64,000 bases of DNA. Origin: Escherichia coli. GTDB taxonomy: Bacteria > Pseudomonadota > Gammaproteobacteria > Enterobacterales > Enterobacteriaceae. Made by a program: the position numbers. The stretch lies in the NCBI RefSeq assembly GCF_003334355.1, contig NZ_QOWP01000001.1; one strand, written 5' to 3'. Below, one piece after another: positions 12,801 to 15,800 of the stretch (position 1 is the first letter of the stretch; each line of letters starts with the position of its first letter).

Positions 12801-15800
12801 TAGCCTGGTCCGGCGCTGTTTTACTTCTGGTCGGCACGCTGTTGCTGGCCTGGTCCGTGGTTCGCCAGCAAGAGTCTACGCTGGCGATTCGTGCCGTTCA
12901 TCAAGGCACAACGATGCCAGACGGTTTTTCAATCTGGCATCACCTTGACGCTCATGGCATTCCTTTCAAAAGTATCACCCCCAAAAACGACACTCTGTTA
13001 ATTACCTTTGACTCCAGCGACCAGAGCGCCGCTGCAAAAGCGGTCCTCGACAGAACATTGCCCCAAGGCTACATCATTGCGCAGCAGGACAATAACAGTC
13101 AGGCTATGCAGTGGCTGACCCGGCTACGGGATAACTCTCATCGCTTCGGATAACTTCCTGTTATCCGAAACAGATCACTCACTTTGGTGATTTCACCGTA
13201 ACTGTCTATGATTAATGAGGCGGTGGTTAACACTACCGCTTCGTTGTCTGGACAATCGTTCCTTTGTAATAGGTCCGAATCACAATGGAAGGTTCAAGAA
13301 TGAAATACCGCATCGCTTTAGCTGTTTCTCTTTTTGCTCTTAGTGCTGGTAGTTATGCCACTACCCTGTGTCAGGAAAAGGAGCAAAATATCCTTAAGGA
13401 GATCAGCTATGCCGAAAAACACCAAAACCAGAATCGTATTGACGGTCTGAATAAAGCCCTGAGTGAAGTCCGGGCCAACTGTTCAGATAGCCAGCTGCGT
13501 GCCGATCATCAGAAGAAAATCGCAAAGCAGAAAGATGAGGTGGCGGAACGCCAGCAAGATTTAGCCGAGGCGAAGCAAAAAGGCGATGCCGATAAGATTG
13601 CCAAACGCGAACGGAAACTGGCAGAAGCGCAGGAAGAGCTGAAAAAGCTGGAAGCGCGCGACTACTAACTCACAATAGTCACTACTTACTCACCTGGAGA
13701 AAACTATGTCGAAAGAACACACTACGGAACATCTGCGTGCTGAGTTGAAATCCCTTTCCGATACGCTGGAAGAGGTGCTTAGCTCATCTGGCGAGAAGTC
13801 GAAAGAAGAGTTGAGTAAGATTCGTAGCAAAGCGGAGCAGGCACTGAAACAGAGCCGTTATCGCCTGGGTGAAACCGGTGATGCCATCGCCAAACAAACC
13901 CGTGTCGCGGCGGCGCGTGCCGATGAGTATGTGCGTGAAAATCCATGGACGGGCGTGGGCATTGGCGCTGCAATCGGTGTAGTGCTCGGCGTTCTGCTGT
14001 CGCGTCGTTAATTATGGCGGACACTCATCACGCGCAAGGGCCCGGTAAAAGCGTTCTGGGCATCGGGCAGCGAATTGTTTCCATCATGGTTGAAATGGTG
14101 GAAACACGTCTGCGGCTGGCGGTGGTTGAGCTGGAAGAGGAAAAAGCTAATCTCTTTCAACTTTTACTGATGCTGGGCCTGACGATGCTTTTCGCTGCAT
14201 TTGGTCTTATGAGCCTGATGGTGCTAATTATTTGGGCGGTTGATCCGCAATATCGCCTGAATGCGATGATTGCCACCACCGTGGTGTTGCTGCTACTGGC
14301 ACTGATTGGCGGTATCTGGACGTTACGTAAATCGCGTAAATCCACCTTGCTGCGCCATACACGCCATGAGCTGGCAAACGATCGGCAGCTGCTCGAGGAG
14401 GAGTCCCGTGAGCAGTAAAGTCGAACGTGAACGACGTAAGGCGCAACTGCTTAGCCAGATCCAGCAACAACGGCTGGATCTTTCTGCCAGTCGTCGTGAA
14501 TGGCTGGAGGCAACAGGCGCTTACGATCGTCGCTGGAATATGCTGCTAAGTCTGCGCTCCTGGGCGCTGGTTGGCAGTAGCGTGATGGCGATCTGGACGA
14601 TTCGCCATCCTAATATGCTGGTCCGCTGGGCCAGACGCGGTTTTGGCGTATGGAGCGCCTGGCGTCTGGTTAAAACGACCCTCAAGCAGCAACAGCTTCG
14701 CGGTTAACTTCCCTCTGGCCGGAGCCATTCCGGCCTTACCCATCAAATTTTTTGAAGATTTTTGACAGTTTTCCTTGCTAACAATCATCATTCACCACGT
14801 TTATGATTCTCTCCATCGACAGCAACGACGCTAATACCGCGCCCTTGCACAAAAAAACAATCAGCAGCCTGAGTGGCGCAGTGGAGAGTATGATGAAAAA
14901 ATTAGAAGATGTTGGTGTACTGGTAGCACGCATTTTAATGCCGATTCTGTTTATTACCGCTGGCTGGGGAAAAATTACTGGCTACGCGGGTACCCAACAA
15001 TATATGGAAGCAATGGGCGTCCCGGGTTTTATGCTGCCGCTGGTGATTCTGCTTGAGTTCGGTGGTGGTCTGGCAATCCTGTTCGGTTTCCTGACTCGCA
15101 CCACTGCCCTGTTTACTGCGGGCTTTACGCTGCTGACGGCATTTTTATTTCACAGCAACTTTGCTGAAGGCGTCAACTCGCTGATGTTCATGAAAAACCT
15201 GACAATTTCTGGCGGATTCCTGCTGCTGGCAATTACCGGTCCGGGCGCGTATAGCATCGACCGCCTGCTGAATAAAAAGTGGTAAGCACGCGCTATACTT
15301 AACGATAAAAAACGAGGAGGAAGCTCCTCGTTTTTGCTATTGGAGGAGAGAAAAATGGGTCAACTGATTGACGGCGTCTGGCATGACACCTGGTACGATA
15401 CCAAATCTACCGGCGGTAAATTTCAACGTTCAGCTTCCGCATTTCGTAACTGGCTCACTGCCGATGGCGCTCCTGGCCCCACTGGCACAGGCGGTTTTAT
15501 CGCAGAGAAAGATCGTTATCATCTCTATGTTTCACTCGCCTGCCCGTGGGCGCACCGCACGCTGATCATGCGCAAACTCAAAGGACTGGAACCGTTTATT
15601 TCCGTTTCCGTAGTGAACCCGCTGATGCTGGAAAACGGCTGGACCTTTGATGACAGTTTTCCGGGAGCAACCGGAGACACGCTCTATCAACATGAATTTT
15701 TGTATCAGCTTTATCTCCACGCCGATCCCCACTACAGCGGACGAGTTACTGTTCCCGTGCTGTGGGACAAAAAGAACCACACCATCGTCAGCAACGAATC

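Follow-up and report, generated by a model that had tools for sequence, protein, structure and literature searches.

Four small genes of Escherichia coli, yqjC, yqjD, yqjE and yqjK, follow one another on the plus strand at positions 13300–14707 of the analysed window (a stretch of 64,000 nucleotides of contig NZ_QOWP01000001.1), and this arrangement raises two questions: which of them are coupled in translation, and where does translation of the last one begin? Tight coupling of all four had been suggested in the initial annotation. The comparative data considered below lead us to think that this is a stress operon in which three genes, yqjD, yqjE and yqjK, quite probably form a translationally coupled unit, with yqjK read from a GTG codon and an 11-nt overlap of yqjE and yqjK that appears to be lineage-specific.

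The Locus and Its Transcription

The region is the annotated yqjC-yqjD-yqjE-yqjK stress operon of E. coli, which is already known. The gene identities given in the initial annotation proved right, since the coordinates (Table 1) coincide with those annotated by RefSeq in an E. coli chromosome of 100% identity and the products match the expected Pfam families. The locus was found in 5423 of 5426 complete E. coli genomes. Its counterpart in strain K-12, known as yqjCDEK or yqjDEK (b3097–b3100, PMC10746276), has the same gene set, order, spacing and start codons, and the sigma-S start sites and CsrA sites reported for K-12 can be placed exactly on the window sequence. No substantial difference separates the two strains; an example of what does differ is one synonymous change just past the yqjE start.

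Table 1. Positions of genes and regulatory or structural elements of the yqj locus in the window.
Feature	Position	Strand	Description and source
Sigma-S promoter, −10 element	13206–13213	+	CTATGATT; PMC10746276, placed on the window sequence
yqjC/yqjCDEK transcription start	13218	+	A, −82 from the yqjC ATG; PMC10746276
CsrA binding site BS1	13285–13289	+	AUGGA, overlaps the yqjC Shine-Dalgarno sequence; PMC10746276
yqjC	ATG 13300 to TAA 13666–13668	+	122 aa; ORF, RefSeq and Pfam
Internal sigma-S promoter and yqjDEK start site	13590–13605	+	within the yqjC coding region; PMC10746276
yqjD Shine-Dalgarno sequence	13696–13699	+	GGAG; sequence
yqjD	ATG 13706 to TAA 14009–14011	+	101 aa; ORF, RefSeq and Pfam
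yqjD/yqjE junction	14009–14016	+	TAAttATG: stop, 2 nt (tt, 14012–14013), start; sequence
yqjE	ATG 14014 to TAA 14416–14418	+	134 aa; ORF, RefSeq and Pfam
Predicted hairpin at the yqjK start	14388–14416	+	8-bp stem GCUGCUCG / UGAGCAGU, pairs the last two GTG bases, Shine-Dalgarno sequence in the loop; fold
yqjK Shine-Dalgarno sequence	14395–14403	+	GAGGAGGAG, within Glu codons of yqjE, 4 nt before the GTG
yqjK	GTG 14408 to TAA 14705–14707	+	99 aa; ORF, RefSeq and Pfam
G+C-rich hairpin	14717–14735	+	GGCCGGA-GCCAT-TCCGGCC, 10 nt past the yqjK stop; fold

Two mRNAs, yqjCDEK and yqjDEK, are produced from sigma-S promoters located upstream of yqjC and inside it (PMC10746276). The start site at −82 upstream of yqjC was mapped by primer extension and in vitro transcription, and that of yqjDEK, at −105 to −101 from the yqjD ATG, corresponds to 13601–13605 (CCAAA) in the window. 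CsrA acts as a translational repressor at the yqjC and yqjD leaders; the A(−15)G change in BS1 (AUGGA to GUGGA), which falls on window position 13285, removes regulation, and the levels of YqjC and YqjD are up to 20-fold apart (PMC10746276).

Gene starts, operon structure, control by sigma-S and CsrA, and the synteny of DUF883, YqjE and YqjK genes are thus annotated or published already, and short overlaps are the rule among co-translated bacterial genes, so that the locus carries little weight as a discovery. In our opinion, what the comparison of species adds is that the GTG start of yqjK may be fixed independently of profiling data, that the coupled unit can be delimited as yqjD-yqjE-yqjK with exclusion of yqjC, and that yqjE never has a ribosome-binding site of its own, which provides concrete and testable grounds for treating YqjE and YqjK as possible partners of the hibernation factor YqjD in further work.

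Position of yqjC Outside the Probable Unit

[quoted passage not shown] The distance of 37 nt between yqjC and yqjD is not tight and exceeds the proximity of stop and start codons by which coupled pairs are recognised. Since this distance varies from 26 to 85 nt across species, both genes have their own SD sequences, the yqjC coding region contains a sigma-S promoter for yqjDEK, and the distant DUF883/holin-X/YqjK triads have no yqjC, this gene most probably stands outside the coupled unit; the unequal protein levels mentioned above point the same way. The starts of yqjC and yqjD are open, with mean opening energies of 7.4 and 7.0 kcal/mol against a background of 11.8 kcal/mol.

The yqjD/yqjE Junction

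The statement that yqjE follows yqjD by 2 nt is correct (Table 1). Junctions were surveyed in 80 loci of Enterobacteriaceae for yqjD/yqjE, 79 of which were usable for yqjK. The yqjE start lies 1–2 nt after the yqjD stop in all 80 (2 nt in 54, 1 nt in 26), and a similarly tight junction is present in most of the distant triads. The energy of the SD/anti-SD duplex for yqjE is +1.1 kcal/mol in the window, and no SD sequence was detected at the yqjE start in any of the 80 species (mean +0.57 kcal/mol, lowest value not below −1.7 kcal/mol). Table S1 of PMC13245402 likewise gives no SD core for yqjE and contains neither Ribo-RET nor INRI evidence for it, though the protein was detected and its ATG start is confirmed by two peptides from the N-terminus, MADTHHAQGPGKSVLGIGQR and ADTHH.... 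The mean opening energy of this start (12.8 kcal/mol against the background of 11.8 kcal/mol) makes it no more accessible than random coding sequence.

A start without an SD sequence 1–2 nt past the preceding stop looks like a signature of termination-reinitiation coupling. Since yqjE lacks its own ribosome-binding site and begins immediately behind yqjD, ribosomes completing yqjD most likely go on to translate it, and the output of YqjE would thereby be tied to that of YqjD. Known termination-reinitiation pairs (Huber et al. 2019, PMC6728339; PMC10666635) are similar in being co-directional, in having stop and start codons within a few nucleotides, in conservation of this arrangement across species and in the SD-less downstream gene. 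The E. coli junctions differ from typical pairs, in which distances of −4 or −1 are the commonest: yqjD/yqjE has a gap of +2, and the 11-nt overlap of yqjE and yqjK belongs to a rarer class, whereas most relatives show −4 or −1 at the latter junction.

The yqjE/yqjK Junction

The genes yqjE and yqjK overlap by 4 nt in 45 of the 79 loci, by 1 nt in 10, by 8 nt in 10 and by 11 nt in 11, and are separated by a gap of 1–2 nt in 3, so that the distance ranges from −2 to +11 nt. The SD sequence of yqjK, built from conserved Leu-Glu-Glu/Asp codons at the yqjE end, is the strongest in the operon (duplex energy −11.8 kcal/mol, with a window median of −2.3 and a first percentile of −8.0 kcal/mol); its mean energy in the 80 species is −8.4 kcal/mol.

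In E. coli, both the start codon and the SD sequence of yqjK fall into a predicted hairpin formed together with the last yqjE codons. The segment 14350–14470 folds with −43.6 kcal/mol (z = −2.99), the local hairpin contributes about −21 kcal/mol, and the opening energy of the start, 18.6 kcal/mol, corresponds to the 94th percentile of the window. Ribosomes reaching the end of yqjE would unfold this hairpin and terminate within a few nucleotides of the GTG, and translation of yqjK may therefore be promoted by that of yqjE via unfolding, reinitiation or both. Systems with coupling by RNA unfolding, such as MS2 coat-lysis and rpmI-rplT (PMC12548453), resemble this arrangement. In contrast to them, the yqjK hairpin is a prediction, devoid of compensatory changes (0 compensatory pairs in the covariation test with 12 sequences), and it is not general in other species, where the mean opening energy of the yqjK start is at the background level (12.9 against 11.8 kcal/mol). 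Selection for the hairpin is unproven.

Both the yqjD/yqjE and the yqjE/yqjK pairs show two of the features of coupled genes, namely location on the same strand and on one mRNA and proximity of stop and start; a scan of the plus strand from yqjD to yqjK gave no terminator-like site. Coupling requires overlaps or very short gaps, and pairs of this kind are enriched among the subunits of complexes (PMC10666635; PMC12548453).

The tight junctions might result from genome compaction only, with yqjK initiated mainly de novo at its strong SD sequence, possibly on its own transcript, and with little coupling to yqjE. Global start-site mapping, as cited in PMC10746276, gives additional predicted transcription starts upstream of yqjE and yqjK, and such a start, together with the very strong SD sequence, means that yqjK could initiate independently; the drift of the overlap from −2 to +14 nt across two frame relations and the lack of covariation in the hairpin agree with this. 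We nevertheless regard compaction as an unlikely explanation. All 79 enterobacterial loci preserve the proximity of yqjE and yqjK, as do all six distant lineages with yqjK on the contig, and this argues that the proximity is constrained; in E. coli, 94% of window positions are more accessible than the yqjK start; and compaction leaves unexplained how yqjE, SD-less in 80 of 80 species, yields a detectable protein.

Start Codon of yqjK and Length of the Overlap

A GTG start 11 nt before the end of yqjE had been proposed for yqjK, and this is borne out: the genes share positions 14408–14418, the GTG is the RefSeq start, located 8 nt upstream of the T of the yqjE stop codon and read in frame +1 with respect to yqjE, and it has the best SD sequence in the operon. 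A start codon occupies the homologous position, within one codon, in 78 of the 79 usable loci (GTG in 46, ATG in 32), and the remaining locus has an ATG two codons upstream. In 60 loci this is the first start codon after an in-frame stop, which lies 3–9 nt upstream in 49. Initiation of yqjK at the annotated GTG 14408 is thus well supported by the comparison of species.

Cross-species conservation of the GTG and of the overlap, named in the initial annotation as a check, was confirmed for the position of the start, as GTG or ATG, and not for the length of 11 nt (11 of 79 loci). It is the proximity of stop and start that is conserved in these alignments, while the exact overlap of 11 nt is lineage-specific. 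It is probably a by-product: in Escherichia, Intestinirhabdus and the Citrobacter amalonaticus group, the 3'-terminal part of yqjE would have changed frame, and its stop would thereby have come to lie 7 nt downstream of an ancestral GTGA/ATGA arrangement.

Initiation farther upstream, at ATG 14366 (113 aa) or TTG 14306 (133 aa), which would extend the overlap with yqjE to 53–113 nt, is very improbable. Both codons are in frame with yqjK with no intervening stop in the window, and the 113-aa form occurs in a few NCBI records (P0001). Against these starts, neither has an SD sequence (+1.9 and −1.5 kcal/mol, respectively), no upstream start codon exists in 60 of the 79 species owing to in-frame stops, the database clusters are dominated by the 99-aa form (P0004, P0005, P0011), and the Pfam YqjK domain begins at residue 14 of that form. 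Programmed frameshifting that would yield a YqjE-YqjK fusion, conceivable only from the overlapping frames in the window, may be practically dismissed, because different species have different frame relations (one for overlaps of 1 or 4 nt, the other for those of 8, 11 or 14 nt), a stop-containing gap separates the genes in three species, the junctions lack a conserved slippery motif, and a start codon with an SD sequence is conserved there instead.

YqjD and YqjE are listed in TRAINSPOTTER Table S1 (PMC13245402), from which YqjK (b3100) and YqjC (b3097) are missing; the supplements of the INRI-seq and Salmonella riboproteogenomics studies contain no yqj entries. None of these sources offers Ribo-RET, INRI-seq or peptide support for the start of yqjK. 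The N-terminal tryptic peptide of YqjK would be very short.

Protein Products and a Possible Common Function

The products had been described as envelope and ribosome-associated proteins; binding to ribosomes is known for YqjD only. YqjC belongs to the DUF1090 family (PF06476, 1.8e-34), and its N-terminus resembles a signal peptide (MKYRIALAVSLFALSAGSYA). YqjD combines a DUF883 N-terminal domain (PF05957, 4e-13) with a C-terminal glycine-zipper tail anchor, DUF883_C (PF19029, 2.1e-15); its score of 92.5 bits with the NCBIfam ElaB model is under the equivalog cutoff of 139, as expected of a paralogue. It is a C-tail-anchored membrane protein and a ribosome-hibernation factor that inactivates ribosomes (bioRxiv 10.1101/2024.08.16.608256), and its start is supported by the N-terminal peptides MSKEHTTEHLR and SKEHTTEHLR as well as by Ribo-RET and INRI-seq (PMC13245402 Table S1).

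YqjE is a membrane protein with two hydrophobic helices that matches Phage_holin_3_6 (PF07332, 4.1e-21, residues 19–127). A role as a functional phage holin was considered and rejected: no PHROG family was matched at E ≤ 0.01, and the gene is chromosomal, present in nearly all E. coli genomes, and always situated between DUF883 and YqjK genes in the loci examined. The holin label is nominal. YqjK matches its own family (PF13997, 5.7e-25) with residues 14–86, covering the whole 73-position model. Searches gave no PHROG or PADLOC match for YqjE and YqjK and no PDB relative of YqjE by sequence.

A speculative but likely purpose of the coupling is the synthesis, in a fixed ratio, of three jointly acting small membrane proteins. 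A stronger version, in which obligate coupling sets a fixed ratio of YqjD, YqjE and YqjK at the membrane and a co-translational complex restrains or tunes the tethering and blocking of ribosomes by YqjD, is tentative and, on balance, doubtful; if true, it would provide the first function for two uncharacterised "y-ome" proteins, YqjE and YqjK. A physical complex is unsupported, and the AlphaFold2 model of fused YqjD-linker-YqjE-linker-YqjK (24-row paired alignment, pTM 0.27, mean pLDDT 58, YqjD tail anchor below 50) argues neither for nor against it.

Distant Triads and the 3' End of the Operon

The genome scan with an alignment of 5 YqjE sequences covered relatives at the level of Enterobacteriaceae, and distant lineages were taken from contigs encoding homologues. 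In these triads, with YqjE 33–43% identical, yqjD and yqjE overlap by 1 or 4 nt and yqjE and yqjK by 1, 4, 11 or 14 nt. That yqjE and yqjK occur in synteny with DUF883 genes has been published (bioRxiv 10.1101/2024.08.16.608256).

The PA3040-PA3041-PA3042 operon of Pseudomonas aeruginosa (PMC11302039) is similar, with DUF883, YqjE-like and small third proteins encoded in this order at a spacing below 15 bp, and resembles the E. coli operon also in its induction in stationary phase and by envelope stress. It differs in the absence of a yqjC-like gene, in PA3042 being reported without a recognised domain, and in that overexpression does not inhibit growth, unlike that of E. coli YqjD and YqjE. 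The three P. aeruginosa genes have separable phenotypes (PMC11302039), which counts against the reading proposed here.

An Rfam search gave no match within the operon, and a consensus terminator scan called none after yqjK, the G+C-rich hairpin there having no adjacent T-run. This hairpin possibly marks the 3' end of the operon transcript.

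Gene arrangement

The yqjCDEK region is common to nearly the whole species: 5423 of 5426 complete E. coli genomes match positions 13150–14800 at 95–100% identity (megablast). For a 100% identical chromosome, RefSeq places the four CDS at the coordinates of the ORFs in the window, with yqjA-mzrA on the upstream side and yqjF-yqjG on the downstream side. The arrangement as a whole has already been annotated and published, and bacterial operons typically look like this. The initial annotation suggested tight translational coupling of all four genes, and the two close junctions that it described were borne out: the yqjD stop is separated from the yqjE ATG by 2 nt, in the sequence as well as in RefSeq coordinates, and 14408–14418 (11 nt) are common to the yqjE 3' end and yqjK, the frame of which is +1 relative to yqjE. 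Tight packing does not extend to yqjC, 37 nt from yqjD.

Genes and associated sequence elements of the yqjCDEK region
Feature	Position	Strand	Description
Sigma-S -10 element	13206–13213	+	CTATGATT (PMC10746276)
Sigma-S start site	13218	+	-82 of yqjC (PMC10746276)
CsrA motif, yqjC leader	13285–13289	+	AUGGA (PMC10746276)
yqjC	ATG 13300 to TAA 13668	+	122 aa; ORF reading; Pfam DUF1090, 1.8e-34
Second sigma-S start site	13601–13605	+	within yqjC, -105 to -101 of yqjD (PMC10746276)
yqjD	ATG 13706 to TAA 14011	+	101 aa; ORF reading; Pfam DUF883 4e-13, DUF883_C 2.1e-15
yqjE	ATG 14014 to TAA 14418	+	134 aa; ORF reading; Pfam Phage_holin_3_6, 4.1e-21
Predicted stem at yqjK start	14388–14395 with 14409–14416	+	8 bp
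Shine-Dalgarno sequence of yqjK	14395–14403	+	GAGGAGGAG, 4 nt 5' of GTG
yqjK	GTG 14408 to TAA 14707	+	99 aa; ORF reading; Pfam YqjK, 5.7e-25
Candidate yqjF promoters	14762–14807		overlapping sigma-70-like matches, TTGACA-18-CATCAT and CTAACA-18-TATGAT, between yqjK and yqjF
Probable REP-type repeats	16341–16426	-	just downstream of yqjG; sub-threshold Rfam matches isrD 24.2 bits, naRNA4 25.4 bits

The 'multiple repeat sites' mentioned for this region in PMC11551758 accord with the REP-type reading of the Rfam matches.

Start codon of yqjK

Three lines of evidence, namely the Shine-Dalgarno (SD) sequence, conservation and databases, argue that GTG 14408 is the real start of yqjK. Pairing of the 20 nt upstream of this GTG with the 16S anti-SD gives a duplex energy of -11.8 kcal/mol, against -2.3 for the median and -8.0 for the 1st percentile of the window background; the in-frame ATG 14366 and TTG 14306 upstream give +1.9 and -1.5 kcal/mol. 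In 78 of 79 usable loci yqjK begins with GTG (46) or ATG (32) no more than one codon away from the homologous position, and in the remaining locus, L026, an ATG is used two codons upstream. E. albertii has ATG in place of GTG at the same position, likewise with an 11-nt overlap. The conserved start is the first possible one after an in-frame stop in 60/79 loci, and this stop is merely 3–9 nt upstream in 49/79, where a longer YqjK is therefore impossible. Among protein clusters the 99-aa YqjK predominates and a 113-aa form is rare, being known from a few NCBI records that start at the non-conserved ATG 14366. Among the database proteins P0053, P0064 and P0001, which include this form, YqjK homologues are in some source records evidently misannotated as 'Cell division protein FtsH'. 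No direct experimental evidence on the yqjK start was found in the published start-site datasets consulted; Table S1 of the TRAINSPOTTER N-terminomics study (PMC13245402) contains N-terminal peptides that confirm the annotated ATGs of YqjD and YqjE, and no entry for b3100 (yqjK).

Junctions in related and distant bacteria

One genome per species was scanned, giving 80 loci of Enterobacteriaceae and close relatives (Escherichia, Salmonella, Citrobacter, Enterobacter, Kosakonia, Cedecea, Mixta and others), and the order yqjC-yqjD-yqjE-yqjK was found in all 80. Without exception, yqjE starts close behind the yqjD stop, after 2 nt in 54 loci and after 1 nt in the other 26. At the yqjE/yqjK junction (79 usable loci) a 4-nt overlap, GTGA or ATGA, prevails (45 loci), followed by overlaps of 11 nt (11), 8 nt (10) and 1 nt (TAATG, 10) and by gaps of 1–2 nt (3). 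Overlaps of 11 nt occur in Escherichia, the Citrobacter amalonaticus/sedlakii group and Intestinirhabdus. Thus, of the features that the initial annotation proposed to check across species, the position of the yqjK start is kept and the 11-nt overlap itself is not; the conserved feature is stop-start proximity.

The yqjE frame ends in ...GAG GAT GAC AAG CCG TGA in most species and in ...GAG GAG GAG TCC CGT GAG CAG TAA in E. coli. Comparison of junction sequences revealed a one-base shift of the E. coli yqjE frame immediately 5' of the shared CCGTGAGC; therefore the TGA is unread and the ORF extends to the next stop, which would be the origin of the E. coli junction.

Stop-start proximity is also kept far outside Enterobacteriaceae, on metagenomic contigs with YqjE homologues 33–43% identical to that of E. 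coli. There yqjD and yqjE overlap by 1 nt (L082, L085/L086, L087, L090, L092) or 4 nt (L089), the sole exception being a 33-nt gap in L088; yqjD is off the contig in L091. The yqjE/yqjK overlap is 14 nt in L082, 11 nt in L091 and L092, 4 nt in L089 and 1 nt in L085/L086 and L090, and yqjK is off the contig in L087 and L088. No yqjC homologue was found upstream on any of these contigs (L082, L085–L092).

Several loci proved irregular. L054 (CACSKA010000008.1), titled 'Chryseobacterium sp. 18061', carries Enterobacteriaceae-type yqjCDEK with YqjE 87% identical to that of E. coli, and this assembly is probably mislabelled or contaminated. In Trabulsiella odontotermitis (L025, ~3395–3450) the yqjK GTG and 4-nt overlap are kept, and a deletion and frameshift follow after ~9 codons, indicating either a pseudogene or an assembly error; yqjK is intact in the sister species T. 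guamensis (L020). Frameshifts in Citrobacter amalonaticus AUH_CA_2023_1 (L041), after ~residue 94 of yqjC (2290–2700) and close to the yqjK 3' end (~3650–3770), probably reflect indel errors in long-read assembly.

Probable translational coupling of yqjD, yqjE and yqjK

Judging from the sequence, yqjE is most likely a classical case for termination-reinitiation because it is SD-less, its ATG follows the yqjD stop by 1–2 nt and the protein is nevertheless detected. No SD was found for yqjE by duplex energy in the window (+1.1 kcal/mol) or across 80 species (mean +0.57, best never beyond -1.7). The TRAINSPOTTER table (PMC13245402) lists yqjE without an SD core and without Ribo-RET or INRI evidence, and yqjD with both. 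The terminal Arg-Arg of YqjD is encoded by CGN codons in 79/79 tallied species; AGG AGG would give a perfect SD.

The cost of opening -18 to +12 around the start codon fits reinitiation: yqjC and yqjD, which initiate independently, are open (means of 7.4 and 7.0 kcal/mol), whereas yqjE and yqjK (12.8 and 12.9) are no different from random window positions (11.8 ± 4.3). The yqjE codons for the conserved LLEE/LLED residues supply yqjK with its strong SD, which in E. coli lies in the loop of the predicted stem, with two GTG bases paired; the fold over 121 nt scores z = -2.99, and opening of this start costs 18.6 kcal/mol (94th percentile). A ribosome completing yqjE would melt the hairpin and terminate 8 nt beyond the GTG, so that the unfolding and reinitiation models of coupling, reviewed in PMC12548453, may both apply. 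Over the 12 sequences that have the 11-nt overlap, the stem pairs in 89% of cells, one of its pairs is lost in half of the sequences, and no compensatory changes were found; selection for the hairpin is unproven.

A frameshift-fusion mechanism at yqjE/yqjK was considered and rejected, being countered by two frame relationships among species and by the small-gap species. Published work, in which coupling collapses once the stop-start distance reaches ~20 nt and overlapping pairs prove over-represented among subunits of heteromeric complexes (PMC10666635), fits the yqjD-yqjE-yqjK geometry, and coupling of these three genes as a whole is most likely.

The initial annotation extended coupling to yqjC, and this was wrong: yqjC is outside the coupled unit. 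Its distance to yqjD is 26–85 nt over 80 loci, and yqjD has an SD of its own together with a start that is unusually easy to open (4.9 kcal/mol, 5th percentile). In addition to the sigma-S promoter inside yqjC, PMC10746276 describes separate repression of the yqjC and yqjD leaders by CsrA and cites YqjD levels up to 20-fold over YqjC, as well as cold and oxidative stress acting in opposite directions on yqjC and yqjDEK.

Protein functions

YqjD is a C-tail-anchored inner-membrane protein that tethers ribosomes and inactivates them by blocking the 50S exit tunnel; the preprint that describes this regards YqjD as the archetype of its family, throughout which it finds DUF883 genes together with yqjE-like and yqjK-like ones (bioRxiv 10.1101/2024.08.16.608256). 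YqjC, YqjE and YqjK belong to the uncharacterised 'y-ome' (PMC11551758), and overexpression of YqjE leads to growth arrest (cited in PMC10746276 and PMC11302039). The RefSeq name of YqjE (14014–14415), 'phage holin family protein', originates solely from Pfam PF07332 and is a family name only, the gene being core chromosomal; no PHROG family at E <= 0.01 and no solved relative among PDB chains were found for YqjE.

The YqjE-YqjK interaction stated in PMC10746276 comes from a server that predicts transmembrane dimers (its reference 68). AlphaFold2 modelling of a YqjD-linker-YqjE-linker-YqjK fusion, for which a paired alignment of 24 rows was used, gave an uninformative result (pTM 0.27, mean pLDDT 58). 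In our opinion, it is rather doubtful that the ratio of YqjE to the hibernation factor YqjD is set by SD-less synthesis of YqjE through reinitiation alone and that the three proteins assemble into a functional complex in the membrane. YqjD (13706–14008) also weakly matches, over residues 3–96, the PADLOC model of LeoC, a candidate anti-phage defence protein (E = 7.4e-5, 21 bits).
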